From: a virus | Taxonomy: Duplodnaviria; Caudoviricetes | Strand: one strand, 5' to 3' | Length of the DNA stretch: 43,591 nt | IMG/VR virus record: IMGVR_UViG_3300028588_000038 | Location: 1 to 43,591 of that record | In this document: in pieces, positions 1-13,655 of the stretch | Position numbering within the stretch: the first letter of the stretch is position 1 | Layout: every line of letters begins with the position of its first letter | Position numbers and translations under genes: made by a program | Notes under the pieces: generated by a model | Told to the model about the DNA's origin: nothing | Databases searched by the model: none | What the model saw: the letters and a program-made list of their open reading frames with translations, nothing else

Positions 1-179
1 GTCCTTACCGAGGGCCATGTTGCGAAGTTACAACATACCCCCCTGGCGACTTGCCTAAAATTTAATCTGATTAAATTTTAAGCGCCTATTTTTTAATCAG
101 TTTGGAACTTTATACCACGAAATCAAACTATCGAGACAGATTCCACTTTTGCCAGAGCGAGCGATTGTAAGAACTCACC

Positions 180-374
180 CTAATCTGATCCGAAATCGGT
201 TGGATCTCGCATTCCAACATGGGGAGGCGGCGGTGGAGGCACGTACAGGCTATCTCGAACTCGCTGGAACTCTTCCTCTTGCTTTCGTACTGCCTTGAAA
301 GCAGAGGCTCGGCCCATTAGCCAGCCACCTAGCCATAGAAGGATGGCGCCAATGACAAGAAGGAGATCGTTCAT
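180..374 (-). CDS. Small membrane protein with Pro-rich C-terminus
   Basis: N-terminal hydrophobic helix; ATGA overlap with the upstream ORF; AAGGAG RBS. Confidence 0.7.
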   Translation of the reverse strand: MNDLLLVIGAILLWLGGWLMGRASAFKAVRKQEEEFQRVRDSLYVPPPPPPHVGMRDPTDFGSD

Positions 375-532
375 TGCTTGCTCTCCTTAGCCTGACTTGG
401 ATTGCATAGTGCAATCACACCCTTTGCTGTGAACGGATGAGGGAATGGACGACCATCATCGTAGTAGTACTCACCGTCAGCGCCCATATAAAAGCCACTC
501 GGCTCCTGCTTATCTTGGCTCTTGTCGGTCAT
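371..532 (-). CDS. Hypothetical 53-aa protein (MTDKSQDKQEPSGFYMGADGEYYYDDGRPFPH...)
   Basis: Read manually; below the ORF-track cutoff. Fills the gap with 4-nt overlaps to both neighbours. Confidence 0.6.
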   Translation of the reverse strand: MTDKSQDKQEPSGFYMGADGEYYYDDGRPFPHPFTAKGVIALCNPSQAKESKQ

Positions 533-1068
533 AACTTTGCCTTCTGCTTCTGCTCATCGGTGAGCATGGCCCATTGGATCAGGTGCCGTCGGAGGATGAA
601 GTCAGAGTCGCTTGCGAATTGGCGCTGAGCCGGCGAGCACTCTTCATCATTCACCCACACAGCATCCATGTTCGTTGGCTCTGGTTCCTCTGGCGTGTCA
701 AGGTGGACTACCTGGCGAGCGCCGGCGCCTTCCGTTGGTGGGGCCTGTTCAGCATCGCCGCCCATAGCCATGAAGCGAGCAAAGGAGCCATAGCGGCTCT
801 TCTCGGCAGGACTGAGCGCGTTGTAAGCCTGGCGCATTTCTTCGGGCGCAGGGTATGGAACTGCAGACAGATCGATCTCTGGCTCGGCTACGGACTCCTC
901 ACGCATCACCTTCATGCGCTGAGTGATGCCCTCGATATCATCGATCGACAGTGGGATCTCAAAGACCATCACCAGCTCACCGCTATCAGTGAAGCATTCC
1001 TTCTTGCGAATGCTGGTATCGGCTAAGCCGAAGTAGGATGCGGCCGCATCGAGGAAAGCGGCGCTCAT
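529..1068 (-). CDS. Hypothetical phage protein
   Basis: 179-aa ORF translationally coupled to its neighbours. Confidence 0.75.
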   Translation of the reverse strand: MSAAFLDAAASYFGLADTSIRKKECFTDSGELVMVFEIPLSIDDIEGITQRMKVMREESVAEPEIDLSAVPYPAPEEMRQAYNALSPAEKSRYGSFARFMAMGGDAEQAPPTEGAGARQVVHLDTPEEPEPTNMDAVWVNDEECSPAQRQFASDSDFILRRHLIQWAMLTDEQKQKAKL

Positions 1069-1355
1069 TGATGTGCCCCATTATGTATTTCGCTTTCCAG
1101 ATCCCATAACACGACCAGTTCTTCGTGACTCATCGTCTGGAAGACTTCCGTGCTCTCAAGCTCCCACATATGCTTTACATCTTCTTTTTGAACAGCTGTC
1201 ATGTACTTCTTCAGCAGTTCTTTATAATCCACTGCTTCATCAAGCATTTCGAGCTTCTTCATATGGGAGCGATGCTCAAGATCGTCGTATTCCATTTTGA
1301 TTTCCTTGGGAGGGATAAGAGACTTCAGGTTATCACGTACTGTTCTATGGGGCAA
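1065..1355 (-). CDS. Hypothetical protein (true start may be the ATG at 1295)
   Basis: In-operon ORF; AAGGAAA precedes the internal MEYDDL start. Confidence 0.6.
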   Translation of the reverse strand: MPHRTVRDNLKSLIPPKEIKMEYDDLEHRSHMKKLEMLDEAVDYKELLKKYMTAVQKEDVKHMWELESTEVFQTMSHEELVVLWDLESEIHNGAHQ

Positions 1356-2538
1356 TCACTGCAACACGGGCAGGGGCGCCCGACACATTTACCATTGCCG
1401 CCAGTAGAAGCTCTAGGCCAAGCACCGTTGCACTAGAACGCTGCACCAGACGAATGCTAAAGCCGGTGGTGCTTGCAGATACCTTGATCCATACTTGATT
1501 GCCGGCCAGCGGTGGCTCTGGTTGAATCGTAGGTATAGCGGCGAATGGCGTGGCGAATGTCACCGTGTACAGGCCGTTTGCATCGGTAGTTCCGATATAG
1601 GTCTCAATACGTTTAACTGCGGTTGCGTCAGCCTTGGATGCGAGTGCGGCAGACAGCGCGGCATTGGTAACTACATCTGGCTTGCCAGTGAGGCTAGCCC
1701 ACGTGCCATCGAACAGAGTAGGCTTTCCCGTAAGATCTGCATATGCGCCACTGAAGAAAGTGGGCTTACCGCTTACTTGCGCCCAAGTAGAGGGATAAGC
1801 AGAGGGCTTGTCTGCAAGGTCGTTGAAAGATCCCGAGAACAGGCTAGGCTTGTTAATCAGGTCCGAATAGCTGCCACTGAAAAGCGCCGGCTTGTTTGCG
1901 ACCTGCGCCCACGTAGTCGCATAGGTTGCAGGCTTGTTCGTCAGCGAGTCCCATGTGCCATCAAATAATGCCGGCTTACCACTGAGCGATTGCCAAGTGC
2001 CGTCAAATAGCGATGGCTTGTTCGTAAGATCGGCGTAGCTACCCGAAAAGAAGCTCGGTTTATTTGCTACCTGGCTCCAAGTCGTCGGGAAATTCGATGG
2101 CTTGCCCGTTATCGAATCCCACTTCCCGTCAAAAAGCACCGGCAGGCCGCTTAAATCGGCGTATGAGCCAGTAAACTGCGGGGGCGCATTCTTCAGGTCT
2201 GCATAATCGCCCGATGCTGCCACGGCGCTCATAGAAGGCTTGCCAGTAAGCGAACTGTACTTGCCGTCGAATAGCACCGGCACATCAGTCAAATCTCCGT
2301 ACGAACCACTAAATAAACTAGGCTTGTCAGTGATTTGCTGCCACGTGGTTGGGAACGTCGCAGGCTTGCCCATCACCTTATCCCAGGTAGTTTCACCTGG
2401 TGACATCGTGTTTGTCTCGGTCAGTGTCAGCGCCTTATCTGGCGTCACAACGGCAACGGTCTTACCGGCATTGTTCTTGTTGTAGATCGGCAGGCGGTTC
2501 CAAATACGCTTAAAATTCGACAGTGCTTCGGGAGTCAT
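1345..2538 (-). CDS. Fibre-like protein with 17 tandem ~14-aa repeats and a C-terminal beta-rich domain
   Basis: Repeats of TTWxQVxxKP / FSGSYxDLxxKP / FDGTWxSLxGKP, like the SGSYNDLTNKP repeats of phage fibres. C-terminal GLYTVTFATPF motif resembles fibre-tip domains. Confidence 0.7.
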   Translation of the reverse strand: MTPEALSNFKRIWNRLPIYNKNNAGKTVAVVTPDKALTLTETNTMSPGETTWDKVMGKPATFPTTWQQITDKPSLFSGSYGDLTDVPVLFDGKYSSLTGKPSMSAVAASGDYADLKNAPPQFTGSYADLSGLPVLFDGKWDSITGKPSNFPTTWSQVANKPSFFSGSYADLTNKPSLFDGTWQSLSGKPALFDGTWDSLTNKPATYATTWAQVANKPALFSGSYSDLINKPSLFSGSFNDLADKPSAYPSTWAQVSGKPTFFSGAYADLTGKPTLFDGTWASLTGKPDVVTNAALSAALASKADATAVKRIETYIGTTDANGLYTVTFATPFAAIPTIQPEPPLAGNQVWIKVSASTTGFSIRLVQRSSATVLGLELLLAAMVNVSGAPARVAVIAP

Positions 2539-2861
2539 GGAGCCTCCAGCGAGCTAACGAGGAACCACGCCGATTCCGCTTGCAGAAGGCCGTTTTCCCA
2601 CGTCGAGGTTTGGCGCACGAATCGCCCCGACTTATCAGGACCGAAAGTGGCCGAAATCATATTGCCGTCTGCATCGTACTTGTAGCGCGATGGCATCGAG
2701 TTCGTGTCAAAGGTGTATTCCCCGCTTTGATCCGTCACAAGGCCCGAACCTGAAGCCGGCGCGAAACGGTCGGCATAACTGCCATCAGCAAGCTTGACCA
2801 TAGCACGCGTCTTGCCTTGGCCTATGCCAAATAGAATTTTGTCGGGATTGTCGTCTGCCAT
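2535..2861 (-). CDS. Hypothetical protein with one YD-like motif (YKYDADGN)
   Basis: GAGGA RBS; ATGA-coupled to the repeat fibre gene. Confidence 0.7.
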   Translation of the reverse strand: MADDNPDKILFGIGQGKTRAMVKLADGSYADRFAPASGSGLVTDQSGEYTFDTNSMPSRYKYDADGNMISATFGPDKSGRFVRQTSTWENGLLQAESAWFLVSSLEAP

Positions 2862-2902
2862 GGCTTGTCCTCAAGGGGTTGCGATTGAGGGAGGGATACT
2901 CC

Positions 2903-2931
2903 ATTGTAAGGCAGTCAACGATATTTCGGAA
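2903..2931 (-). promoter_or_regulatory. Candidate leftward (late) promoter TTCCGA-17-TACAAT
   Basis: Good -10 and weak -35 that overlaps the palindrome CGGAA-cagc-TTCCG (2927-2940). Confidence 0.4.
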
Positions 2932-2948
2932 CAGCTTCCGGCGAATCG

Positions 2949-2957
2949 TGCTATATT
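2949..2957 (+). promoter_or_regulatory. Extended -10 promoter (TGcTATATT) for a small RNA
   Basis: TGn + TATATT ~7 nt upstream of a short unit ending in a + strand terminator. Confidence 0.5.
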
Positions 2958-2962
2958 CTCGC

Positions 2963-3024
2963 CATCCTTTCTTCACATCTCCCTGTGATGTAATTAGACC
3001 CTCTCCGCGAGGGTCTTTTTTTTT
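2963..3024 (+). ncRNA. Putative two-hairpin anti-Shine-Dalgarno sRNA (resembles the betaproteobacterial 'toxic small RNA' architecture)
   Basis: Hairpin ACATC-TCCCTGT-GATGT followed by terminator AGACCCTC-tccgc-GAGGGTCT-T8. No ORF; oriented opposite to the flanking genes. Confidence 0.6.
2996..3024 (+). terminator. Rho-independent terminator
   Basis: 8-bp stem, 5-nt loop, T8 tail. Confidence 0.8.
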
Positions 3025-3032
3025 CCTATAGC

Positions 3033-3062
3033 CTACGCACCGCCAATGCCTTCGTTTTTCAT
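3033..3062 (-). CDS. Possible 9-aa minigene MKNEGIGGA
   Basis: TAAGGAG 6 nt upstream of the ATG. Confidence 0.3.
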   Translation of the reverse strand: MKNEGIGGA

Positions 3063-3179
3063 GGCTATCTCCTTATCGTTTCTTTTGTCACCTGCCTATG
3101 GGCGGCGGGCAGGCGCCAGATTGGCTTTTATTGGCCGTTTACTGGATAACGCCGTTGCGACCTGATGTCGCGCATTACT

Positions 3180-3503
3180 CTATTCGATGGGCCAGCCATC
3201 CGGCCCGATCTGCGGCTTCGGAGCGTGCTTCTTCTTGCCCTGCTCCTCTTCAGTCTTCACGGCATGGCATGGATCGCAGATGCACTGGCAGTTCGCCTCT
3301 GACTCGGTGCGCTCCTTGCTCCAACCTAACTGCTTTGCGCGTGCGCGGCTAGTGATGTGGTCGACCGCCTGGAAGCGAGTCACGCGGCCTTGCTTTAGGC
3401 AGGGCTGGCACAGGCCTTTGTCGCGCTCGATGACCTTCTTGCGCAGCTTCTCCCAGGCGGCTCCGTAGCCGCGCTCTTGGCGTGTTTTAGGTCCCCAGGG
3501 CAT
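3180..3503 (-). CDS. HNH endonuclease, HK97 gp74-like terminase cofactor
   Basis: RGYGAAWEKLR...RDKGLCQPC...VDHI...NCQCICDPCHAVKT...IGPDGWP is the typical cos-phage HNH pattern. Confidence 0.9.
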   Translation of the reverse strand: MPWGPKTRQERGYGAAWEKLRKKVIERDKGLCQPCLKQGRVTRFQAVDHITSRARAKQLGWSKERTESEANCQCICDPCHAVKTEEEQGKKKHAPKPQIGPDGWPIE

Positions 3504-3600
3504 TTAGCATAATCCGTGAGATCGTTTCGACCATCAAAACCGCTACGGCCAATGCCACCGCAACCATGCAGCCGATGAGCAAAATCACAACGACTCGCAT
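3487..3600 (-). CDS. 37-aa single-pass membrane peptide
   Basis: TAATG overlap with imm; hydrophobic MRVVVILLIGCMVAVALAVAVLM. Confidence 0.5.
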   Translation of the reverse strand: MRVVVILLIGCMVAVALAVAVLMVETISRIMLNALGT

Positions 3601-3779
3601 TACGCCACCTTCTCTTCGTTCGACCGAATAGCCAAGTAAAGCGCCACGACCCACAGAATCATGGTCCAGCCGCCAAAAAGATTGATGACGAACACGCCAC
3701 CACGACGCCCCTTGCGCGCAATCCAAGTTGGCGCAAAGTAAGCGATGAAAATAAGTGCTGCGTAGATAAATGGTTCCAT
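3600..3779 (-). CDS. imm: Superinfection immunity protein, T4 Imm family (59 aa; absent from ORF track)
   Basis: MEPFIYAALIFIAYFAPTWIARKGRRGGVFVINLFGGWTMILWVVALYLAIRS matches the YFxPTxIA...NLFxGWT..W..AL signature; ACAGGGAGA RBS. Confidence 0.85.
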   Translation of the reverse strand: MEPFIYAALIFIAYFAPTWIARKGRRGGVFVINLFGGWTMILWVVALYLAIRSNEEKVA

Positions 3780-3796
3780 TCTTCTCTCCCTGTCGG

Positions 3797-3868
3797 TTAT
3801 TTCTTCTTGCCAGTGACCACGAGGATCACCAGCACTATGGTTACGATAACAATCCCTGCTTCAATCAC
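3797..3868 (-). CDS. 23-aa hydrophobic peptide MIEAGIVIVTIVLVILVVTGKKK
   Basis: GTG start with AAGGA RBS; one TM helix with a basic tail; fills the gap. Confidence 0.4.
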   Translation of the reverse strand: MIEAGIVIVTIVLVILVVTGKKK

Positions 3869-4118
3869 GCTGACGGTCCTTTCGCAGACCCAATGCAAGC
3901 CGTGCTTCTTCGCTGGTGAACTTGTGCGCCTTGCCCAAAGCATGCGTAGCCTTTCCGCCACGCGACGCAATATCTTTCCGCATCTCTGGTGATGCAGCCT
4001 TGAAGAACGGAACCTTGCCGTTTGCGTGCGCTGCCTTGCCGCCCATCGACGCTATCTCTTTGCGACGCTCTGGTGAGAGCGCAGCCATACCGCGAGGCTT
4101 CTTTACTGGTTCATTCAT
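3861..4118 (-). CDS. KGG-repeat (stress-induced, YciG/Con-10-like) protein
   Basis: RGMAALSPERRKEIASMGGKA and SPEMRKDIASRGGKA repeats; AHKFTSEEAR; AGGAG RBS. Confidence 0.85.
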   Translation of the reverse strand: MNEPVKKPRGMAALSPERRKEIASMGGKAAHANGKVPFFKAASPEMRKDIASRGGKATHALGKAHKFTSEEARLALGLRKDRQRD

Positions 4119-4149
4119 CCATGCTCCTGTGCGTGTTTCGATGTACTCC

Positions 4150-4178
4150 ACAATAACAATAACACGCACAGGATGCAA
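4150..4178 (-). promoter_or_regulatory. sigma70-like promoter TTGCAT-17-TATTGT
   Basis: Spacing of 17 nt; overlaps one arm of a 13-bp inverted repeat whose other arm covers the KGG RBS. Confidence 0.55.
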
Positions 4179-4181
4179 GCA

Positions 4182-4355
4182 CTATTGCTCGCTATTTCGC
4201 GCCTCACTCACTTTCCGCACACGCGCCCTTCGATCCTTCCCGCGCCTGCGGTCTTCTTGCGCGCCTCTGCTAATCATGCGGCCAGTCAGCCAGCCTAAAA
4301 GCAAAGATGCTGCAAGCCATGCTAGTGCGTAGTCTGTCCAGGTATCGAAGTGCAT
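4182..4355 (-). CDS. 57-aa membrane protein with basic tail
   Basis: Read manually: MHFDTWTDYALAWLAASLLLGWLTGRMISRG... Confidence 0.55.
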   Translation of the reverse strand: MHFDTWTDYALAWLAASLLLGWLTGRMISRGAQEDRRRGKDRRARVRKVSEARNSEQ

Positions 4356-4372
4356 GTGCGGTCTCCGGGGCG

Positions 4373-4591
4373 TTATGAGGTAGCGAACATCGGGTTCAAT
4401 GCAGTAACCCAGTATCCCGCCGCATTCTTGTCCATCTTCTTGGCGCGCATTTCCTGCTCAGTCATACACCGCCTATCAACGCCAAAATCGCCATGCCGAT
4501 GCTTTTCAAACGCAGCGCTGCTGTTGAACAACTCGTTGCAACCTGTGCATTGATTTCGGTCGCCTGAAACTTTAGCTTTTTCGCGCTTCAT
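4373..4591 (-). CDS. Phage zinc-binding protein (FDxHR-like)
   Basis: CTGC...FNSSAAFEKHR...RRC...W pattern; AGGAG RBS. Confidence 0.7.
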   Translation of the reverse strand: MKREKAKVSGDRNQCTGCNELFNSSAAFEKHRHGDFGVDRRCMTEQEMRAKKMDKNAAGYWVTALNPMFATS

Positions 4592-4604
4592 TCTCTTCTC
4601 CTAG

Positions 4605-5555
4605 TTATTGTGAGAGCTGCTTGATAGTGTCCCGCACATCTTGCATGCCAACTAGCGTCACGCCAGCCCCACGCCGATATACAAGCTTTGCCTTCTCTGG
4701 ATCGCCATACAGCACGGCTGGCAGAATTGGGCGACCGTTTGCGCTGTTGTGCGCGTTAGCCTGCCCTGTAAGCCGTGCTGGATATTCGGTCACTGCTCCG
4801 CGCTGTGCATAGGCGCGGTAACGCTGCTGGAACTCCTTTGCAACGAACGGCCACTCCTTGTCATCCTTGCTACCTACAAGGATCCAGCCGCCCATATCAG
4901 CTAACACGCGATGAATCGTGGCGTCATCAAAGATCACATCGTCCCAAGTCCCACGGACACGAACGGCTTGATCTACCTTACTCCACGCGATCTGTGAGCG
5001 GTCATCCGTACCGCCGTCGATCATCTTGATAATGTCGCTGTTGCGCGGCATCCAGCGGCCTGCTTCATCCGGCAACTGAGTGTGAGCCCAGCACGCTTTT
5101 TCGATTGCCTCATAGCTGTACTGGCGCAGGCCAGCCCAATAGATCGACAGCATCGAGCGCGACAGTTCGGACTTGTAGTAATCGGCCATGTGCGTGAGCA
5201 GGGTAGCGAAACGCTTTTTCTGCTCTAGCGTGTCGTCCATCGGTTCATCGCCAATCCACTGCTTTGCGTTCTCTGCGGTTGCATTGCCGTGCTTTCCAAG
5301 CTGCGGCAGGCCGGGAGCAGCCGATACGCGCTTGCCGTCTTCTTTCGGCACGTAAAGGTCGGTGTATCCATTCACCGTTGAGTTGTCGAGGATTGCCCCT
5401 ACGTCATGACCAGCATCGCGAAACTTTTCCAGATCCTTGATACGCAGTTCCATGGCGCGCAATGTCATCTTCGTCTTTGGCGACCTTGCGCGCATCTCTA
5501 CGTAGCCAGCCCAGGCTTCAGCGGGAATCCAATCCGGCAACGAGAACGCTATCAT
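4605..5555 (-). CDS. Replication protein: initiator C-terminal-like domain fused to a DUF6475-like domain
   Basis: N-terminal LPDWIPAEAWAGYVEMR...ILDNSTVNGYTDLY resembles phage initiator C-termini; AWSKVDQAVRVRGTWDDVIFDDATIHRVLADMGGW resembles DUF6475. Confidence 0.7.
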   Translation of the reverse strand: MIAFSLPDWIPAEAWAGYVEMRARSPKTKMTLRAMELRIKDLEKFRDAGHDVGAILDNSTVNGYTDLYVPKEDGKRVSAAPGLPQLGKHGNATAENAKQWIGDEPMDDTLEQKKRFATLLTHMADYYKSELSRSMLSIYWAGLRQYSYEAIEKACWAHTQLPDEAGRWMPRNSDIIKMIDGGTDDRSQIAWSKVDQAVRVRGTWDDVIFDDATIHRVLADMGGWILVGSKDDKEWPFVAKEFQQRYRAYAQRGAVTEYPARLTGQANAHNSANGRPILPAVLYGDPEKAKLVYRRGAGVTLVGMQDVRDTIKQLSQ

Positions 5556-6409
5556 GGTTGCACTCCTGCTGCCGAGCCAATGAACTGCACACGATACTTC
5601 CCGTGCTTATCTTGATGCTCCTGCGCACAGTATCTACGCATTGCCCCCTCGTGCATTTCTCCTGGCAGCATGTCAATCGCAGTACCCATCACCCCACCTT
5701 TCCACGAGCCTTTTTCAGTGCCAACTTCGGCACTAAAACTAATATCGAGACGCCGACGAATCTTCGACTTGCGGAACATGCTAAGCCATTTGAACCATCC
5801 CTCACCGAACCGCCATTCTCGCTCATCAATGCGAGTCGTGGCGATAACATCAGCGCCATCGTAGTCGCGAATAATGAAAGAAGCCGCTGGACATGCCTTA
5901 GACGCTTTGTACTGATCGGTGAAAGCGGTCATACCCCGAATGTCGTTGCGCTGCCTCTTCTCCCAAAACAAATTGCCATCCAGATCATAAAGGCTGTAAC
6001 GAACATGCCGCCACTGCGTCCAGGGCAGATGCTTGCACCACATTTTTCTAGTTTTACTGGAATCTGTCTGAATACCATGAAAAATCTGAAGAAAACCTTC
6101 GCCGTACTGAAAACCGTACTCCTTGCCAATCTCCTTCCAGTAACCACCTTCAGGCTTCGACCAAGCATACATAGAAGTATCATTCCATTCGCGCCCCGGC
6201 TTGAGCACTCCCGGCGCCTCCATTATCAGGGTCCACTTGTACAGATAGAATCGAACATGGCACTTATCACCATCCTCGCCCGAATCCAGAATGACGCCAA
6301 TCATTCGGGTCGAACTGTCGTCACGCGAGCTAAAGGTGAACGGCCCAAAGTGTTGATCGTTACTGCTCCAGCGCCTTTTTGTAGTTTTGAACCACGAGGA
6401 ATTGAACAT
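5552..6409 (-). CDS. Hypothetical Trp-rich phage protein
   Basis: 285-aa ORF with GGAG RBS, coupled to the replication gene. Confidence 0.75.
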   Translation of the reverse strand: MFNSSWFKTTKRRWSSNDQHFGPFTFSSRDDSSTRMIGVILDSGEDGDKCHVRFYLYKWTLIMEAPGVLKPGREWNDTSMYAWSKPEGGYWKEIGKEYGFQYGEGFLQIFHGIQTDSSKTRKMWCKHLPWTQWRHVRYSLYDLDGNLFWEKRQRNDIRGMTAFTDQYKASKACPAASFIIRDYDGADVIATTRIDEREWRFGEGWFKWLSMFRKSKIRRRLDISFSAEVGTEKGSWKGGVMGTAIDMLPGEMHEGAMRRYCAQEHQDKHGKYRVQFIGSAAGVQP

Positions 6410-6720
6410 TTTTCTTCTCCGTTCTTCTGTTTGATTTGAGCATAAGACTAGCCAAGGGTTTGACCTACCCTCCAGCCACCCTAGATCAAGATTCCGACCT
6501 AGAACTACTGCTGCTATAAGCTACCGATTCAATTTCCAGAGCGCCCTTACGTGGGCTAACCGCCATTCGTCAAACTGTTGCTCTGTTCCTGGGATACCTC
6601 GGTAAAGTTCCACGCGCCGGCTAGTCAATAAGCGCAGACCATCAACTCCAAGCGGGTAGTCTTACTTCCCCTCTGCTATCGGGTGGAGTCCGGTCAATGT
6701 GGAAACTTGAGTCTGAAAAC

Positions 6721-6830
6721 AAAAAAGCCGCTGAGGTTTTCTGCATTCGGACTTGTGGAGGCAAGTAGGGCTTAACCCCTGAATGCAGAAACCTAAGCGG
6801 CTTCTAAACTCGTCAACGCCTCCACATCGA
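6721..6830 (-). ncRNA. C4-like antisense RNA/attenuator no. 1
   Basis: Long closing stem AAGCCGCT..AGGTTTCTGCATTC / GAATGCAGAAAACCT..AGCGGCTT with a U-tail. Two internal hairpins (loops GTTAAG and CCTCCA) are complementary to the upstream TGTGGAGGC-GTTGAC. Confidence 0.65.
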
Positions 6831-6838
6831 CAAAAGTA

Positions 6839-6867
6839 ATTGTAGAGATTACGGAACAATAGATCAA
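6839..6867 (-). promoter_or_regulatory. sigma70 promoter TTGATC-17-TACAAT
   Basis: Near-consensus hexamers with 17-nt spacing, immediately upstream of the structured RNA. Confidence 0.75.
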
Positions 6868-6915
6868 GCGAATTCACACATTTTTTCGATGGATTGGAAC
6901 TTTTTCTGCTGAGCG

Positions 6916-6939
6916 AAAAAAAGCCCGCGAGAGGCGGGC
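6916..6939 (-). terminator. Rho-independent terminator
   Basis: GCCCGC-ctctc-GCGGGC-T7 on the minus strand. Confidence 0.8.
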
Positions 6940-6967
6940 CGTTGGGTGGAGCGTTAAGCATGACAAG

Positions 6968-7288
6968 TCATGCAGGCCCGAACAGCGCAACGTGCAGCGG
7001 ATCGCGTACAAGGTGCGGCGTCCACGTGCTGGTGATGATCTGCTTTGCCCGGTCGATACGCGAACCCATGGACATATCCTTGCCGGTGGCTTCCCAGCTG
7101 GAGAAGCGGCTACCCGGAATGGCTGTCTTGCGGATGCATTCGACGCGCGCCAGGTGTGCCAGCTCACTGCCTGCGGTGCGCTCATCGATGTTGAAGGCTT
7201 TGGCAATCTGTCGTGCGGTCAAGCCGGGGTTGTCCGTAATGTATTGCAGGACCATCGAGCGGCGGCTTTGTTCTTTAGGGAGGGTCAT
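6968..7288 (-). CDS. Winged-HTH protein
   Basis: VLQYITDNPGLTARQIAKAFNIDERTAGSELAHL; C-terminal RDPLHVALFG. Confidence 0.75.
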   Translation of the reverse strand: MTLPKEQSRRSMVLQYITDNPGLTARQIAKAFNIDERTAGSELAHLARVECIRKTAIPGSRFSSWEATGKDMSMGSRIDRAKQIITSTWTPHLVRDPLHVALFGPA

Positions 7289-7290
7289 GT

Positions 7291-7908
7291 TTAGAGTCCT
7301 AGTGCAGAGAAAATGCCTTTCGGCGCAGTGTTCGGTTTGATGCCACGTGCCTGGCGCTGTTCTTCGCGCGACATACGGCGGAAGCTTATGCGTTCCTTGC
7401 TTGGCTCGTTGCCGACCGCGTAGACAGCTGCGCGCGATCCTTTGGGATGTGGCAAGATCCAGGCGCGTACGTGAATCGAGTCTTCTTGCTTAAGCGCGTA
7501 GATAATGAAGCGGGTATAGCTGTAGCTGATACCAAGGCGTTTAGCGAGGTCGTAAGTCGTGCTAGGCAGGAGTAGCGCAGCCAAAACTTTCTCTTTCCAC
7601 ATATCGGCCTTTTTTTCTATCTTGCTCTTTGGCGCCGGCGTGTAGATAGCATCGGGCATGCTCCCAGTGCTATATACCCTTGCAGGCTTGTTGCGGTCTA
7701 CAGGCTGCCAGGCGGCCACGTAGACGCGTTTCTGTTCGTGCAGGATGCTTAGATAGTCGCGCGCTGTATCATGGCTTACATGCATGGTCTGGCTTAGTTC
7801 TTTGGCGGTCATTTGCTTGGCGCTTAGCAGCTCAAGGATGCGTGCAATGCGGCGGTCCATGCGTGGTGTTGCGCGGCTTGCTTGCTCGGGTGTTCGTGGA
7901 TTTCCCAT
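7291..7908 (-). CDS. Tandem winged-HTH DNA-binding protein
   Basis: Two similar units (TAKELSQTMHVSHDTARDYL...VYVAAW and TTYDLAKRLGISYSYTRFII...IHVRAW). Confidence 0.75.
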   Translation of the reverse strand: MGNPRTPEQASRATPRMDRRIARILELLSAKQMTAKELSQTMHVSHDTARDYLSILHEQKRVYVAAWQPVDRNKPARVYSTGSMPDAIYTPAPKSKIEKKADMWKEKVLAALLLPSTTYDLAKRLGISYSYTRFIIYALKQEDSIHVRAWILPHPKGSRAAVYAVGNEPSKERISFRRMSREEQRQARGIKPNTAPKGIFSALGL

Positions 7909-8145
7909 TTATTCCTCAATCTTAAGTTGGCGCGGATCTACTTCCCGCATTACGTAGACAACATCCGTTTCATCGCAACTGCTCATTCCTGCCAGGGCAG
8001 CTAGTTCAACAGCCTTGTTGCAGACAGAGACACGCTGACGCTGAAAGATGCAGGAGCCGCAAGCCCTGCCAGGCTTGGTGATGAAGTTCAGGCTGGCAGG
8101 GTTTAGGGGCTCGTCGTACAGATCAGCCAGGGCTATCATGTTCAT
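7909..8145 (-). CDS. Hypothetical Cys-containing protein
   Basis: CGSC...C...C pattern; in-operon. Confidence 0.65.
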   Translation of the reverse strand: MNMIALADLYDEPLNPASLNFITKPGRACGSCIFQRQRVSVCNKAVELAALAGMSSCDETDVVYVMREVDPRQLKIEE

Positions 8146-8147
8146 GG

Positions 8148-8381
8148 CTAATGCGCACGCTGGCGATTTACGTAAGCCCTCGCCAGCTGGCCAGATGCAT
8201 CGTCATGCGGAATATCGCCACGATCCATCTTTCCATTACGCCAGCCATGCCAAAAGCTTTTGCTCTTATCGCTTCCAGGCTCCGCACCGCCTGCAAAGCC
8301 ATAGCGATATCCGTCAAGGCAATCATCCATATCCAACAAATCGACTTCTTCAATAGTTCTCAGCGGTTGATACTCACTCAC
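8148..8381 (-). CDS. Hypothetical protein
   Basis: GTG start with ACAGGGAGA RBS; GY..G...SFWHGWRNG motif. Confidence 0.7.
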   Translation of the reverse strand: MSEYQPLRTIEEVDLLDMDDCLDGYRYGFAGGAEPGSDKSKSFWHGWRNGKMDRGDIPHDDASGQLARAYVNRQRAH

Positions 8382-8447
8382 TTTGTTCTCCCTGTATAAT
8401 CACTTCCAATACGGCCCCGCCCTCTGCGCAAGCACGGCGGGGTTCTT

Positions 8448-9053
8448 TTATGCCTGCTTAGCTTCTTTGATACGCCGCAGGTAATCCGCTTTCATGGCTT
8501 GCAACTGTTCAACGGTGTATTTGCGTGGCGTCGTGTCTGCTTCTAGCGCCTCGACAGCATCCAGGCCAATACGAGCCACCAAGCCTTTGCGGAACAGGAT
8601 CTGATTCCCGCTAAGATGCACGTTGCACCAGTGGCATTGCCGCGCCAGGTTCAACTCTTCCAGTGCCAGATTCGGACGCGAGCCACGGCTGATGTAGTGG
8701 CCCGCATCGAATTTTTGGCCATGGTCAGAGTGGCCGCAAGAGATACACGGCTTGCCGGCGTCCCGTACTTCACGAATCCACTTGTTGAGTGCTGCTTGCG
8801 TCTCTTTGAAGTAGTCTGCGCGTCGCTTCAGCTTTGCTAGCCCTTCCTGGCGCTCCCTCTTCAGCTTGCGTTCCTTTTCTACTTGCACATGCATCTGCGC
8901 GCATTCCGGCTTGCAAGCCTTGTGCGTCATGCTCATGGGCTGGAAGGGCGTACGGCATACGATGCATTTCCGCATACGCCGCTTTCCTTCCTTGACTGGC
9001 TCGGGCCGTTTGAAGCCGGCTCGCTTCAGCGTGCTAGTACGTTCCAGAGTCAC
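8448..9053 (-). CDS. ninG: NinG/Rap-family recombination endonuclease
   Basis: CIVC..C...C, QAALNKWIREVRD..PCISCG...DAGHYISRG...N...QCHWCN.HLSGN. Confidence 0.9.
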   Translation of the reverse strand: MTLERTSTLKRAGFKRPEPVKEGKRRMRKCIVCRTPFQPMSMTHKACKPECAQMHVQVEKERKLKRERQEGLAKLKRRADYFKETQAALNKWIREVRDAGKPCISCGHSDHGQKFDAGHYISRGSRPNLALEELNLARQCHWCNVHLSGNQILFRKGLVARIGLDAVEALEADTTPRKYTVEQLQAMKADYLRRIKEAKQA

Positions 9054-9517
9054 ATATCACCCCGCGCGCCAAAGCGAACGCCTAGGCTCGCGCCAAACGC
9101 TTCTATCGCTTCCCGGTACTGTGCATGCCCTTTGATGGTCAGTTGCGTAGTAGAGCCGATTAGTACGCGATCACCAGCTGGATCAATCGCCCACTTCGCA
9201 TAGTTTTCCATTGTCAGCTCTGGGTCGAAACTTTCGGGTAGCAGTTGGCGTTTGAAATACTGCGCCCAGACCTCTGGCGAAAACTGGCGTCCATCCAGCC
9301 AAGCCTGCTCGCTAATGTCACGTAGAGGTCCGGCCCATAGAGCGGCGTTCTGATCTGCCTTGCGCGCCTTGACCTCTTCCCGCGCCACCACTTCAACAGG
9401 CCGAAGAGGATCAATAGGCAGGTTACGCACAAGCGCCAGGAGGCTATCGCGCACCTTCTCATCGCGCAGGATGAACTTGCGCGGCTGCATGGCAGGGCGG
9501 TTACTCTTCGCTCGCAT
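9050..9517 (-). CDS. ninB: NinB/Orf-family recombination protein (start may be 9490)
   Basis: R..DQNAALW...DISEQ.W..G...PEVW...FK...GSTTQL...IEAFGA..GVRF. Confidence 0.88.
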   Translation of the reverse strand: MRAKSNRPAMQPRKFILRDEKVRDSLLALVRNLPIDPLRPVEVVAREEVKARKADQNAALWAGPLRDISEQAWLDGRQFSPEVWAQYFKRQLLPESFDPELTMENYAKWAIDPAGDRVLIGSTTQLTIKGHAQYREAIEAFGASLGVRFGARGDM

Positions 9518-9635
9518 ACACGCCTCGTTGTTCTTCCTCGATACCCTGGTGATAAGCCATTACATAGATGCCGAAGCCTGCACCGAAAAGAAAGCCCAAG
9601 GTGATTAGGCTGAATACGATGAGAAAGTCGTTCAT
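9501..9635 (-). CDS. 44-aa membrane peptide
   Basis: MNDFLIVFSLITLGFLFGAGFGIYVMAY...; AAGGAG RBS; ATGA overlap. Confidence 0.6.
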   Translation of the reverse strand: MNDFLIVFSLITLGFLFGAGFGIYVMAYHQGIEEEQRGVYASEE

Positions 9636-9808
9636 TGAGATTTCTCCTTGAAGTAGGTTGCCAGTTTCCGTACCGTCTCAAAGGACGGGCTTTTTTGCTT
9701 GCCAGATGAGATGTTACAGACCGTGCGAGACGACAAACCAACTGCCGCCGCAACCTTCGCCTTGTTCGCGCTTTCCAGCATCTTTAGTACGTATTCCAAG
9801 TCATTCAT
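9632..9808 (-). CDS. Cro-like XRE HTH regulator (58 aa; absent from ORF track)
   Basis: KAKVAAAVGLSSRTVCNISSGKQKSPSFETVRKLATYF; first gene of the leftward early operon. Confidence 0.8.
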   Translation of the reverse strand: MNDLEYVLKMLESANKAKVAAAVGLSSRTVCNISSGKQKSPSFETVRKLATYFKEKSQ

Positions 9809-9837
9809 GGTGGTGGTCTTTCGAGTGGTGATGCGTA

Positions 9838-9867
9838 ATCATAGCGTGGCACAAGAGGAACTGTCTA
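9838..9867 (-). promoter_or_regulatory. Leftward early promoter TAGACA-18-TATGAT
   Basis: Near-consensus sigma70 elements at the strand switch. Confidence 0.6.
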
Positions 9868-9890
9868 GCACTATTTGGTGAAAAAAGAGC

Positions 9891-9920
9891 TTGCAAACGG
9901 TGGTGGAAATATGGGATGAT
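9891..9920 (+). promoter_or_regulatory. Rightward early promoter TTGCAA-18-GATGAT
   Basis: Divergent partner with an A-rich UP-like tract upstream. Confidence 0.5.
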
Positions 9921-9965
9921 TCATCTATGGCAGCGATGAGCGCGGCCAGGTAACCGAGAACTAGG

Positions 9966-10145
9966 ATGAACACTACCAATGCCCAGCCACGCTACTTCGT
10001 CAGCCCATGCGGCAAGAACACTGACTTCTTCTCTGCTGGCCTGGAGCCTGCTGGCTGGACTGACGTTACACATTTGGATGACGCAGCTGTCAGTGATCTG
10101 ATGGTGCGTAGGATGTGGGATGTATCGAAATCTAACGATGTATAA
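9966..10145 (+). CDS. 59-aa hypothetical protein (MNTTNAQPRYFVSPCGK...)
   Basis: Read manually; first ORF after the rightward promoter. Confidence 0.6.
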   Translation: MNTTNAQPRYFVSPCGKNTDFFSAGLEPAGWTDVTHLDDAAVSDLMVRRMWDVSKSNDV

Positions 10146-10188
10146 GCCGTTCGGGCTATACATTTTTGGCTAACTAAAGGGGAATGAA

Positions 10189-10347
10189 ATGAACCGAATC
10201 AGCACTAAGCCCACCCTATGGGAGCGTATGCAGCGCAATCCACCTGTAATGTTTGCAGTGGTGATGATTGCATTCTTTGCCTTCATTGGATTTGCAGAGT
10301 TCGCATCTACCATGCTGGGTGCGGCATTTGATGTTCGTGCGGGGTGA
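10189..10347 (+). CDS. 52-aa membrane peptide
   Basis: AAGGGG RBS; hydrophobic core. Confidence 0.55.
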   Translation: MNRISTKPTLWERMQRNPPVMFAVVMIAFFAFIGFAEFASTMLGAAFDVRAG

Positions 10348-10676
10348 TGATGACTGATCGTGAACTGCTGAAACTGGCTGCAAAGGCAGCCGGAAAAGAT
10401 GTGTGGACGGATGCAGATGGCAACCTCTACACAGATACGCCAATCGGCATAGAGATTACATGGAACCCGCTTACCGATGATGGCGATGCGTTGCGCTTGG
10501 CAGTAAAACTAAATATATGGCCTGTACGTCAGTATGACCGCCCGATGATCGTGGTGCAAAGAGGTGCGGCCTACTTCGATGAGATTGCCGAATGCGAGAT
10601 CGAGGGTGATGAACTGGCAGCAACACGGCGCGCTATTGTTCTAGCTGCTGCGGAACTAGGGAAGGAGATGCCATGA
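10344..10676 (+). CDS. Conserved phage hypothetical protein
   Basis: DRELLKLAAKAAG...WNPLTDDGDALRLAVKL...ATRRAIVLAAAELG is a recurrent phage family motif. Confidence 0.8.
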   Translation: MMMTDRELLKLAAKAAGKDVWTDADGNLYTDTPIGIEITWNPLTDDGDALRLAVKLNIWPVRQYDRPMIVVQRGAAYFDEIAECEIEGDELAATRRAIVLAAAELGKEMP

Positions 10677-10846
10677 CCAACTACAGAGTCGTCATTAACT
10701 TCTGTCGCGGCCCTAGCTACGGCCCTACTGAGGTAAGAGCAAGCGATGAGCAGTCAGCTAAGTTTGCAGCGCTTAGGGAAGCCCAGGGGTATGGGTTTGA
10801 TGAAGTACCGAAGGATTACGAAGTCAGTCAGGAATGGGTAATGTAA
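10673..10846 (+). CDS. 57-aa hypothetical protein
   Basis: AAGGAG RBS; ATGA overlap. Confidence 0.6.
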   Translation: MTNYRVVINFCRGPSYGPTEVRASDEQSAKFAALREAQGYGFDEVPKDYEVSQEWVM

Positions 10847-10889
10847 TGCCGCCCTTCGCGGCACCCGCTAGCTAACTAAGGGAGCGAAG

Positions 10890-11120
10890 ATGAACGATAA
10901 AGAATTGGCAGCAGCATACAAGGCGCAAAGAGATTCTTTGCTCGGGTTTATTCAAAACGCAGACGTATCATCTGGCGTGTGTTGCTGTGGTGACGCCATG
11001 GATAGTCATGGCATGTATTGCGGGCATAACCCGGTTGATATGTGGGACCACAGCGTTCTTTGCTACACAGAAGAGCTTGGAAAGTTCGATAAGTTTCTTG
11101 ACGCAGATCAGCCTGCGTGA
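10890..11120 (+). CDS. Hypothetical Cys/His-rich protein
   Basis: GVCCCGD..DSH...GHNPVD; AAGGGAG RBS. Confidence 0.7.
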   Translation: MNDKELAAAYKAQRDSLLGFIQNADVSSGVCCCGDAMDSHGMYCGHNPVDMWDHSVLCYTEELGKFDKFLDADQPA

Positions 11121-11407
11121 CGTAGAAGCTAGACAGATTAGTTTTAATGAAATGGCTTTTCATGTCCAAAAAGGTATATAGAGCCATCCTGCATGGAAAT
11201 TGATCTGCGTCAAAGATTCAGAAGTTGTGCCATTGAGCCGGCTTATGGTTGTGCGTCACAGTCGAGTCCGCTTAGGATGGTCTTTATAGGCTTTACGCCT
11301 TTAGGGCTACAAGCCTCACGTAACTGCATCGCTCAACCAGCCGCTCAGGCTTCCAGTTTGTATGCCTCAAACCCACTAAAAAATGCAGTACCTACAGGGA
11401 GATTGAA

Positions 11408-11644
11408 ATGAGTGGAGCCCAAAAGATTGAACTCTACCGCCCAAGCAACGGAACAGAAGGTGCCGGATTCATGGCGCATTACTGTGAGAATTGCAAGCAT
11501 GACGATCACGGAGAAGGTTTACGCGTATGTGAGATTATCGGCACAACTATGGTCTACAGCGTTGACGAACCTCAGTATCCAACCGAGTGGCAATACAAGC
11601 CAGATGGCTGGCCGACATGTACAAAGTTTGAGGCTGAATCATGA
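11408..11644 (+). CDS. Hypothetical Cys-rich phage protein
   Basis: YRPSNGTEG..F...C..C...CEI...PTCTKF; ACAGGGAGAT RBS. Confidence 0.75.
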   Translation: MSGAQKIELYRPSNGTEGAGFMAHYCENCKHDDHGEGLRVCEIIGTTMVYSVDEPQYPTEWQYKPDGWPTCTKFEAES

Positions 11645-11725
11645 AGCGCATTGCGCCGCAGGTGAACACCTATTGCACTTTCTGTCTTTATGCTGGCGTT
11701 GAGAAAGTAAACAGGACTGAAGCAG

Positions 11726-11920
11726 ATGGATCAAAGTATTAGACTAAAGACGCCAGAAGAAATTGCAAAAGATCATCAGCGCACACGAATCCTCGCCAAC
11801 TTCAAGAAAGCAACAGAGAAGTGGAGCGGCAAGACGTTCTCGCACTTCGCTACGATTGAGGAATGGAAAGTGCATCGTGAGCAGGTTGCACAAGCTGAGG
11901 CTGAAGGCGCACCGTTCTAG
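11726..11920 (+). CDS. Hypothetical protein
   Basis: 64-aa ORF ending in ..APF, upstream of erf. Confidence 0.55.
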   Translation: MDQSIRLKTPEEIAKDHQRTRILANFKKATEKWSGKTFSHFATIEEWKVHREQVAQAEAEGAPF

Positions 11921-11943
11921 CTAAAGACAAAAGGGAGAAGATA

Positions 11944-12561
11944 ATGGAAGTTTACAAAGCAATCGCAGCCGTGGCCGGCGAAATGGCTCATGCTGGCATA
12001 AGCAAGGCCAAAGAAAACAAGATGCAGGGTTTTAAGTTCCGTGGCATCGATGATGTATACAACGCATTGGCGCCTGTCCTGGCGCGTCACCAACTCGTTA
12101 TCCTTCCGCGCTGCGTGGAGCGTGATGTGGTCGAGCGCGTGACAGCAAAGGGTGGCAATCTGTTCTATGTGACGGTCCGCGCTGAGTTCGATTTCGTCAG
12201 CGCTGTTGACGGAACCAAGCACACCGTTGCAACTTACGGCGAGGCTATGGATAGTGGAGATAAAGCCACCAACAAGGCCATGAGTGCGGCATTCAAATAT
12301 GCGGCCTTCCAATCGTTCTGTATCCCCACCGAGGAAACGGCTATTGACGCCGATGCAGTTACGCACCCGGCGACTACTGCAAAGCCTGTCGATATTGAGC
12401 CTTGGATTGCCAAGATGCTTGCCGCTACCAGCTCCAAAGAGCTTAACAAGGTAGCTCAGGAAGCATGGGATGCGACGCAAGACGAGCGCATCACTACTGA
12501 ACACTCGCGCATCCTGGCTGAGCGTAAGGCCGCTGCAAAGCAATTGGCGGAGCAGGCGTGA
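11944..12561 (+). CDS. erf: ERF-family single-strand annealing protein
   Basis: GFKFRGIDDVYNALAPVLARH...GEAMDSGDKATNKAMSAAFKYA...FCIPTE..DAD. Confidence 0.88.
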   Translation: MEVYKAIAAVAGEMAHAGISKAKENKMQGFKFRGIDDVYNALAPVLARHQLVILPRCVERDVVERVTAKGGNLFYVTVRAEFDFVSAVDGTKHTVATYGEAMDSGDKATNKAMSAAFKYAAFQSFCIPTEETAIDADAVTHPATTAKPVDIEPWIAKMLAATSSKELNKVAQEAWDATQDERITTEHSRILAERKAAAKQLAEQA

Positions 12562-12922: not shown

Positions 12923-12970
12923 GGAGTTCATGGGCAGCGCACAGGGCGATGCTAAACAGGGAGATTAACA

Positions 12971-13123
12971 ATGGACGAGAAACTTGTAGAGCTTCTGGAA
13001 GATGCACTTGTTGCTTTAGAAAACAGCAAGCCAGTAATGGAGCACTACGTTGAACCAAATATCAGGCACGTCAAAGCAACGGAAAAAGTTCGCGCAGCAC
13101 TCGCTGAAGCCATTCAAAAGTAA
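12971..13123 (+). CDS. 50-aa hypothetical protein (MDEKLVELLEDALVALENS...)
   Basis: ACAGGGAGAT RBS; read manually. Confidence 0.65.
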   Translation: MDEKLVELLEDALVALENSKPVMEHYVEPNIRHVKATEKVRAALAEAIQK

Positions 13124-13137
13124 AAAGAGTAGCGACA

Positions 13138-13311
13138 ATGCCAACCCCAATCAGCGAAGCAGCCAAGCGCGCCGTAAAGCTTCTGAAGAAGAAGCACCCC
13201 GAGCACCGCTGGCGCAATTACACGATCACAGAAGCCGCCGCAATTGAAGGCGTGTCACGCAGCACAATCTACCGCCACCTTGGCGAGAGCAAACAGGGAG
13301 AAAAACAATGA
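13138..13311 (+). CDS. 57-aa HTH protein
   Basis: YTITEAAAIEGVSRSTIYRHL helix-turn-helix; absent from ORF track. Confidence 0.7.
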   Translation: MPTPISEAAKRAVKLLKKKHPEHRWRNYTITEAAAIEGVSRSTIYRHLGESKQGEKQ

Positions 13312-13640: not shown

Positions 13641-13655
13641 AACAGGGAGAGAAAA

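Follow-up and report, generated by a model that had tools for sequence, protein, structure and literature searches.

The window analysed here is the whole of the IMG/VR record IMGVR_UViG_3300028588_000038, a linear DNA of 43,591 bp with a GC content of 54% and a CheckV completeness of 100%. Its gene content is that of a lambdoid-style siphovirus, and no integrase or repressor family was recognized among the scanned proteins of the window. Gene starts were taken from a codon-model caller, which returned 79 genes. The main landmarks are as follows.

43.5 kb down to 22.4 kb, minus strand: TerL, portal, tape measure and lysis genes
10.2 to 22.4 kb, plus strand: Erf-containing operon
About 10 kb to 3.2 kb, minus strand: genes for NinB, NinG, an O-like replication protein, an Acb3-family protein, Imm and an HNH endonuclease
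3180 to 3503, minus strand: HNH endonuclease gene, convergent with the sRNA-like unit described below and the landmark for the units of related phages
2903 to 2908, minus strand: TACAAT -10 element ahead of the 108-aa gene, pointing away from the -10 element of the sRNA-like unit, 44 bp apart
2535 to 2861, minus strand: 108-aa gene, the first of the structural block

The closest bacterial homologues of the HNH protein belong to Janthinobacterium lividum, Massilia polaris and Massilia sp. Leaf139 (~60% aa identity). Because these nearest homologues fall in Janthinobacterium and Massilia, the host lineage is likely Oxalobacteraceae, and the virus is likely a phage of soil betaproteobacteria. GenBank phages gave no near match to positions 1-12000 of the window, and a search of the same collection in distant mode returned as sole matches 104-nt HNH stretches from three Burkholderia phages. 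Among sequencing runs searched with positions 2000-5000, 0 RNA runs and 1 full DNA match were listed, the latter probably being the sample of origin.

Between the HNH gene and the 108-aa gene lies a compact unit at 2949-3024 on the plus strand. Both flanking genes are encoded on the minus strand and the unit is thus antisense to its neighbours, as had been noted earlier. It can be divided into the following elements.

2949 to 2957, plus strand: predicted extended -10 element, TG-c-TATATT, read from the sequence, with a poor -35
2964 to 3024, plus strand: predicted sRNA of ~60 nt, placed by fold, terminator scan and alignment to Rfam family RF02278
2965 to 2974, plus strand: CU-rich 5′ tail of the predicted sRNA
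2975 to 2991, plus strand: hairpin 1, stem ACAUC/GAUGU, with the 7-nt loop UCCCUGU at 2980-2986
2978 to 2986, plus strand: seed UCUCCCUGU, the exact complement of ACAGGGAGA, with 7 bases in the loop and 2 in the top of the stem
Between hairpin 1 and the terminator hairpin, plus strand: AAUUA linker
2996 to 3016, plus strand: terminator stem of 8 pairs, then a run of 9 T to 3024, strong in the terminator scan

RNA from 2964 to 3024 folds as exactly two hairpins (-17.8 kcal/mol; z = -5.42; none of 200 shuffles as stable), and the loop bases UCCC are unpaired with a probability of 0.96-1.00 in a calculation that includes intramolecular structure. The earlier note had described the element as running from a promoter to a terminator. 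The terminator is indeed strong, but the promoter is a TG-extended -10 element that must be considered a reading by eye, because a scan for sigma-70 consensus promoters does not list it. This -10 element sits 6 nt before the CU-rich 5′ stretch, a spacing identical to that of the RF02278 genes of candidate hosts. Overall, the unit has the appearance of an sRNA gene complete in itself.

The word complementary to the seed, ACAGGGAGA, has 7 exact sites in the window, against a mean of 0.18 in dinucleotide-preserving shuffles (maximum 2; 0 of 100 reach 7), which bears out the number and positions reported earlier: 2978-2986(-), 3785(-), 8387(-), 11394(+), 12956(+), 13293(+) and 13642(+). One of these, here called the seventh copy, is the complement within the unit itself. 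The other six, earlier described as ribosome-binding sites (RBSs), do lie where such sites would, each ending 5-6 nt before an ATG or GTG, and all six precede called gene starts (6/79). They are given below with the predicted energy of their duplex with the sRNA.

3785 to 3793, minus strand: ACAGGGAGA RBS of the 59-aa superinfection-immunity (Imm) family gene, with a 5-nt spacer to its ATG at 3779; -19.2 kcal/mol, the best predicted duplex
8387 to 8395, minus strand: ACAGGGAGA RBS of a 77-aa gene (phrog_4460) that directly follows ninG, with a 5-nt spacer to its GTG at 8381; -15.4 kcal/mol
11394 to 11402, plus strand: ACAGGGAGA(T) RBS of a 78-aa gene (phrog_13210), with a 5-nt spacer to its ATG at 11408; -17.6 kcal/mol
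12956 to 12964, plus strand: ACAGGGAGA(T) RBS of a 50-aa gene, with a 6-nt spacer to its ATG at 12971; -15.9 kcal/mol
13293 to 13301, plus strand: ACAGGGAGA RBS of a 110-aa gene, with a 6-nt spacer to its ATG at 13308; -8.8 kcal/mol, rank 13/79
13642 to 13650, plus strand: ACAGGGAGA RBS of a 599-aa gene, with a 5-nt spacer to its ATG at 13656; -11.5 kcal/mol

The 59-aa Imm gene matches PF14373 (38.8 bits), and the 599-aa gene has no relatives in viral contigs. The extension of the word to 10 nt, ACAGGGAGAT, is present at 11394 and 12956, as proposed. The additional 8-nt match reported at 16183, CAGGGAGA, was likewise confirmed, but no ORF of at least 30 aa starts at the GTG that follows it. 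Head and tail genes carry AGGAG, AGGA or GAGG-type sites and the 9-mer is found at none of them, in agreement with the earlier description. By a hand count, tagged starts make up 6/43 of the non-structural genes versus 0/36 of the other genes (hand-computed one-sided p ~0.02). Furthermore, ACA precedes 6 of 8 GGGAG-type RBSs, and the triplets before AGGAG-type RBSs are varied. The ACAGGGAGA word behaves as one unit.

Seven related phage records (G001, G002, G004 and G006-G009) were found via the proteins that flank the unit. The start regions of all eight phages show a mild excess of ACAGG (2-3 copies versus ~0.9 expected), and the six-fold occurrence of ACAGGGAGA in the window stands above this general background. 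The commonest start-region 9-mer has 6 copies in the window phage versus at most 3 in each of the 7 relatives, and ACAGGGAGA is absent among the listed commonest start-region 9-mers of all seven. An exact search for the word in G001, G002 and G004 gave 0-2 copies each, and the imm orthologues of G004, G006, G007 and G008 have different RBSs. In three candidate host genomes of 4.5-5.4 Mb, ACAGGGAGA-N4-7-ATG is found in 1, 3 and 5 copies, and by hand arithmetic the full 9-nt target is ~190x denser in the phage. Over-representation of the word is therefore specific to the window phage among the seven relatives and the candidate hosts. The word is used elsewhere as well: in unrelated phages (L281, L243 and L256) 3 genes in a neighbourhood have it as their RBS, and a mirror unit is absent from the surrounding 6 kb. 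A search for two ACAGGGAGA sites ~340 nt apart yielded 73 loci, mostly tandem repeats or chance.

Since the seventh copy lies on the strand of its neighbours, it might itself be the RBS of a small minus-strand ORF, with a merely coincidental terminator on the plus strand. Indeed, a 63-aa GTG ORF (2785-2976) and a 4-codon ATG ORF follow it. The spacers would however be 1 nt for the GTG and 12 nt for the ATG, as against 5-6 nt at the six real sites, and the 63-aa ORF partly overlies the 108-aa gene, matches nothing in PHROG or Pfam and is passed over by the codon model. On the grounds of this spacing and of the missing coding signal the candidate was rejected, and we give it hardly any credence.

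The layout of the unit had also been likened to the betaproteobacterial toxic sRNA family. Among all Rfam families RF02278 matches best, and the alignment spans 2968-3022 over the full model length, but it scores 28 bits where the gathering cut-off is 50; the E-value is 0.0027 in a 1.1-kb local scan and 2.5e-5 genome-wide. No Rfam family reaches its cut-off anywhere in the window. Above the cut-off, the three Janthinobacterium and Massilia genomes have 8, 4 and 3 RF02278 genes, and weaker matches are present too. These host copies begin with UGUCUCCUC, have a CUCCUCC-type loop and carry a CATAAT -10 element six nt upstream; GUCUC at positions 2-6 is invariant in 20/20 of them. A host sub-group scoring 40-44 bits, flanked in two Massilia species by secF on one side and an HDOD gene on the other, has the 7-nt loop AUCCCUA.

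Several traits of the family are present in the window unit. It has two hairpins, the second being a Rho-independent terminator with a U run, laid out as in the folded host copies, and its hairpin-1 loop is C-rich (UCCCUGU, where host loops read CUCCUCC or AUCCCUA). The Rfam consensus loop, CUCCUCcUG, also has U-G at its 3′ side, so part of the window's extra match to the RBS is inherited. The conserved single-stranded 5′ seed UGUCUCCUC (UGUCUCC), on the other hand, is replaced by AUCCUUUCUUC. Because the score lies under the cut-off and the 5′ seed is not that of the family, the unit was not filed as a member of RF02278. A covariance model built from 20 host RF02278 copies ranks the window unit first in 323 kb from eight phage genomes, followed by units of G001 and G009 (22.0 bits), although at 22.3 bits this host-trained model gives it no higher score.

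Comparable units are found in the related phages. In 6 of the 7 records, a hairpin-plus-terminator unit lies immediately upstream of the HNH gene and on the gene strand; stem covariation among the four units of the hairpin-1 type was judged from single folds.

G001 and G009, gene strand, upstream of HNH: unit containing ...CUCUUUCUCCCUAGUUUGGAUUU...
G007, gene strand, upstream of HNH: AAUCCCUAGUUAG
G008, gene strand, upstream of HNH: CACUC-CUCCAGU-GAGUG
G004 and G006, gene strand, upstream of HNH: CACUC-AUCCAG-GAGUG, whose loop AUCCAG is not anti-Shine-Dalgarno (anti-SD)

Applied to 91 HNH loci, the host-trained model identified a unit at E < 0.1 in 16. All 16 units lie 250-950 nt upstream of HNH and are co-oriented with the genes, and 0 lie downstream; Rfam scores three of them at 35.3, 33.7 and 28.9 bits. 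UGUCUCC begins 12 of 18 aligned phage units, and the terminator stems of these units covary, with double changes in 6 of 7 pairs. The terminators of the relatives end ~5-12 nt before the RBS of the next gene, so these units may double as leaders that need read-through. Among all these units, only that of the window is downstream of HNH, inverted and devoid of UGUCUCC. A metagenome scan for the 108-aa protein gave 5 loci (the window, G001, G009, L208 and L209), and in L208 and L209 no unit is present between the HNH and 108-aa genes. The window, G004 (L006), L208 and L209 all keep the TACAAT element, 50-60 nt ahead of the orthologous start. A search of viral contigs for the exact 18-nt hairpin word produced 2 matches, both without a terminator and attributed to chance.

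The window unit may be understood in two other ways. The unit could be a functionless relic, that is, an inverted and decaying leader-plus-terminator cassette, perhaps derived from read-through control of a late operon like that of lambda PR'-tR'; its RBS match would then follow from SD complementarity acquired by descent and from ACAGGGAGA being a common form of RBS. The upstream, co-oriented position in 16/16 related loci with a match, the flipping of the window copy alone, the short distance from the relatives' terminators to the next RBS, where read-through would be needed, the promoter that is weak by consensus and the use of the same 9-mer as RBS by unrelated phages are all consistent with such an origin. 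Decay is nevertheless difficult to reconcile with a hairpin, open loop, linker, 8-pair terminator and 9-T run that are all intact, and with a -10 element that has an upstream TG and lies at the distance usual in RF02278. Moreover, the complement of the window phage's top RBS 9-mer is present in 0 of 26 other seeds tested, which also speaks against a relic. We regard a relic as improbable.

The second possibility is a role in cis, for which lambda OOP RNA, acting as antisense at cII, offers a precedent. A plus-strand RNA could pair along its entire length with minus-strand transcripts reading through from HNH to the structural operon, leading to cleavage or uncoupling, or the hairpin could insulate convergent units. 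The unit is antisense to the spacer between HNH and the 108-aa gene, the terminator scan found no minus-strand terminator between 3180 and 3024, and the promoters of the sRNA and of the structural operon stand back-to-back. An action in cis would, however, leave unexplained why the loop matches the most repeated RBS of the phage; the relatives carry their unit on the sense strand, where it has no antisense partner; and pairing in cis is compatible with action in trans as well. We consider this explanation quite improbable.

The earlier note had interpreted the shared RBS as the barcode of a regulon. The complementarity is real. In a dimer partition-function calculation that includes intramolecular structure, the six sites rank 1-5 and 13 of 79, and the window seed has 6 matches of at least 9 nt to its own start regions, more than any other combination of seed and phage in the comparison. 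The seeds of other phages give no more than 4 such matches on phage start regions, and 20 host seeds tried on the 8 phages at most 3 (mean 0.575). The pairing energies, on the contrary, do not single out the phage's own genes. On foreign start regions the window sRNA attains -18.2 kcal/mol in G007, -16.3 kcal/mol in G001 and -14.8 kcal/mol in G004, and sites at or below -10 kcal/mol number 10/79 in its own genome, 7 in G007, 8 in G001, 7 in G004, 3 in G008 and 1 in G002. Simple duplex energies, which are too permissive, give no advantage to its own start regions. A dedicated regulon is thus an unproven interpretation of a real complementarity.

Nor do the relatives' seeds match their own start regions better than foreign ones. 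The G001 seed has 4 matches of at least 9 nt on window start regions and 4 on its own; it fits both equally well, and no covariation of seed and RBS is therefore seen among the relatives, none of which shares the RBS word of the window. As the loops of the relatives (CUCCAGU, AUCCAG) and their imm RBSs differ from those of the window, seed and RBS word are both derived in the window lineage.

This lack of energetic specificity is also what one would expect if the sRNA were directed at the host. A phage unit copying RF02278-type regulators could hit host SDs for metabolic shut-down or takeover, and the match to phage RBSs would then be incidental or secondary. The cited text on the family relates that the sRNAs used to define it had proved toxic when cloned in E. 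coli and that B. cenocepacia J2315 has four members (PMC4603805), and the portion of a review cited here adds that over-expression of NcS27 attenuates growth on several substrates (PMC10987360); toxic or growth-attenuating effects of this kind favour a mimic. So does the retention of the exact host 5′ seed UGUCUCC in those 12 of 18 related phage units, together with the near-identity of the G001/G009 seed and hairpin to the core Massilia sRNA between secF and the HDOD gene (for G001, 20/24 aligned positions identical by hand reading). In the window unit, by contrast, UGUCUCC has been lost. Its loop 13-mer is found in 9/301 host-family genomes, where several copies look like other-strand RBSs and 0 stand in an sRNA-like setting among the 301, and the ~190-fold density of the 9-nt target in the phage over the three candidate hosts likewise argues against a mimic. 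Mimicry of the host sRNA is in our judgement unlikely for the window unit.

Because of its anatomy, its likeness to RF02278 and the behaviour of sRNAs with C-rich loops towards G-rich SD sequences, we favour a trans-acting anti-SD RNA. We hold it to be about an even proposition, perhaps a little better, that the unit is, at the least, an anti-SD sRNA that is expressed. That it is a phage-borne anti-SD sRNA whose best-matched targets, its own six early genes, are its real targets is a more tentative view, which we put somewhat short of even. According to this favoured reading, a ~60-nt RNA would be transcribed from the extended -10 element, back-to-back with the conserved promoter of the structural block, and would act in trans. 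Its C-rich hairpin loop would likely base-pair with SD regions and thereby block ribosome binding. The main targets, presumably repressed together, would be imm, the 77-aa gene behind ninG and four members of the recombination-side operon that runs rightward. Since the unit adjoins the promoter of the structural operon, the arrangement suggests an early-to-late shut-off, its timing being a guess. Weaker pairing with ordinary GGAG/GGGA sites of host mRNAs would also be expected.

In its strongest form, the proposal is an RNA translational switch in which a 60-nt sRNA, its seed re-tuned from that of a host family, silences as a set six early and accessory genes on both strands that carry one barcode RBS; this we consider doubtful. 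If the RNA is made and active as predicted, the phage would have re-aimed a host-type anti-SD sRNA at a private RBS word, and, if this is true, scattered genes could be placed under coordinated post-transcriptional control without a protein factor. A limited literature search found no phage sRNA aimed at a shared RBS word of the phage's own genes. Regardless of the regulon, RF02278-like units recur beside HNH and late genes in this group of phages, and one phage unit copies a core chromosomal Massilia sRNA. Both findings extend into phages a family known only from bacterial chromosomes.

Among known systems, two sets of RNAs have a build similar to that of the unit. RF02278, which includes Burkholderia cenocepacia ncS03, ncS05, ncS27 and ncS62, shares with it a length of ~60 nt, a CU-rich 5′ part, a C-rich first loop, a U/A linker and a Rho-independent terminator. 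The window unit differs in its 5′ end (AUCCUUUCUUC rather than UGUCUCC), in its loop (UCCCUGU rather than CUCCUCC), in being phage-borne and in having its best 9-10 nt matches at phage RBSs and not at host ones. With the units of related phages (for example L043, L041, L050, G001/G009 and G008) it has in common the position next to HNH and the two-hairpin-plus-terminator plan, and these units are likewise sub-threshold in Rfam (35.3, 33.7, 28.9 and 24.3 bits). They are nonetheless located upstream of HNH on the gene strand, mostly start with UGUCUCC and have a terminator abutting an RBS, whereas the window unit is downstream, inverted and provided with a divergent seed of its own. Leaders of the lambda PR'-tR' or 6S type are upstream of and co-oriented with their genes, an arrangement seen in the relatives' units and not in that of the window, which is antisense to both neighbours.

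Other systems resemble the proposed mechanism without being related in sequence. In the hairpins of Staphylococcus aureus RNAIII and in RsaE/RoxS, a loop UCCC pairs with the G-rich SD and blocks initiation. The UCCC loop is shared with the window unit, but these RNAs belong to another phylum, the Firmicutes, show no sequence relation to it, and are chromosomal and control host regulons, whereas the window unit is phage-borne. The T4 protein RegA represses translation of many early genes through AU-rich sites. One factor would act on many early genes in both phages, the factor in the window being an RNA and its site a 9-nt SD word; the switch, if true, would be an RNA counterpart of RegA. The cited text describes the c4 antisense RNA of phages P1 and P7 as a phage-encoded small RNA that pairs with mRNA and thereby regulates genes of the phage itself (PMC12197685). 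As described there, a single operon (ant) is controlled by c4 by means of dedicated paired sites, and c4 arises by processing of the same transcript; in contrast, the site in the window phage is common to six dispersed genes on both strands.

The RBS word itself is best compared with the start-associated sequences (SAS) of cluster K mycobacteriophages. In the cited sections of the original report, SAS is an asymmetric SD-containing motif found 3-7 bp before the starts of non-structural genes only; it is near-absent from the host genome, has one extra copy in a non-start setting, and a phage RNA or protein was left as a possible binding partner (PMC3203893). Its function, open since 2011, was still so in 2025 according to the passage cited (PMC12699233). 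As far as these descriptions go, ACAGGGAGA resembles SAS in being oriented, in having an SD core, in marking non-structural starts (6/43 vs 0/36) and in being rare in candidate hosts. SAS, however, is 13 bp long, has at least 9 copies per genome and is conserved across subclusters, while the ACAGGGAGA word has 9 (to 11) nt and 6 copies and is not common to the relatives examined. If the favoured reading is true, the window phage would provide a testable model for start-associated sequences. The odd-oriented copy of its word lies within the sRNA-like unit, and SAS, in the text cited, also has a single such copy; a mirror copy of a start-associated motif made as RNA might thus be the missing trans factor for SAS in other phages.

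Besides the RF02278-like unit at 2949-3024, another candidate sRNA is encoded on the minus strand, within a 560-nt non-coding gap and after a separate terminator at 6922-6940 on the same strand. The features of the window considered here are as follows.

3032-3061, minus strand: mini-ORF of nine codons that encodes MKNEGIGGA and has a strong AAGGAGA site
3490-3600, minus strand: hydrophobic 37-aa ORF, uncalled-looking, between imm and HNH
5555-6409, minus strand: gene for a 285-aa protein, matching the CBASS inhibitor Acb3 family (PF25187, 229.5 bits)
6712-6867, minus strand: candidate sRNA, with the promoter TTGATC-17-TACAAT (9/12)

The candidate at 6712-6867 corresponds to an RNA of ~120 nt with a fold of -53.8 kcal/mol (z = -5.8) and a U-run terminator at its end, and one of its inner hairpins is predicted to display the canonical anti-SD sequence CCUCCA in a loop. 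A homologue in the related phage G001 (L022 8445-8580; -60 kcal/mol, z = -7.2) retains the architecture with altered inner hairpins. The candidate was assigned to no Rfam family. Because its PF25187 match is strong, the gene at 5555-6409 is likely to be an anti-defence gene.

Around HNH, the mini-ORF is followed, after 6 nt, by the complement of the 2949-3024 unit's terminator and was not seen in relatives, and the start of the 37-aa ORF overlaps the stop of imm (TAATG). In the related phages G001 and G007 a conserved non-coding block (...cgtaacttcgggataagctgacg...ggtgaaa.tccag..caccaca) is found 3' of HNH (L003 3300-3350 and L031 1636-1690), and its hairpin covaries (ggttgg/ccagcc versus gactgg/ccagtc). 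The window lacks this block, for which Rfam gave no reported hit.

A TACAAT promoter and a C-rich leader precede the 108-aa gene and are conserved in the window (2862-2908, minus strand), in the related phage locus L006 (1822-1878) and in two further loci carrying this protein (L208 1440-1504 and L209 1455-1504). In three of these four loci a 6-bp stem is predicted between an upstream CCUCAA/CUCUCG and the gene's own SD (UUGAGG/CGAGAG); the stems have weak energies and the z-score of the window's is not significant. Separately, in an unrelated viral contig (L241 5851-7955) a 49-50 bp unit that includes ACAGGGAGATAG is repeated in tandem about ten times.

A UGUCUCC-hairpin-terminator unit is present about 250-950 nt upstream of HNH in many related phages, as well as in a Massilia prophage (L041, L043, L044, L047, L050, L064 and others). 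Since its terminator stops about 5 nt ahead of the following gene's GAGGU RBS, the arrangement suggests a leader in which termination would yield an sRNA and read-through a late mRNA. Chromosomal units resembling RF02278 below threshold (40-44 bits) form a sub-group comprising a tandem pair (L200/L203) and L205, located between secF and an HDOD-domain gene, a position conserved in two Massilia species; their seed and hairpin region is nearly identical in the phage unit of G001 and G009.
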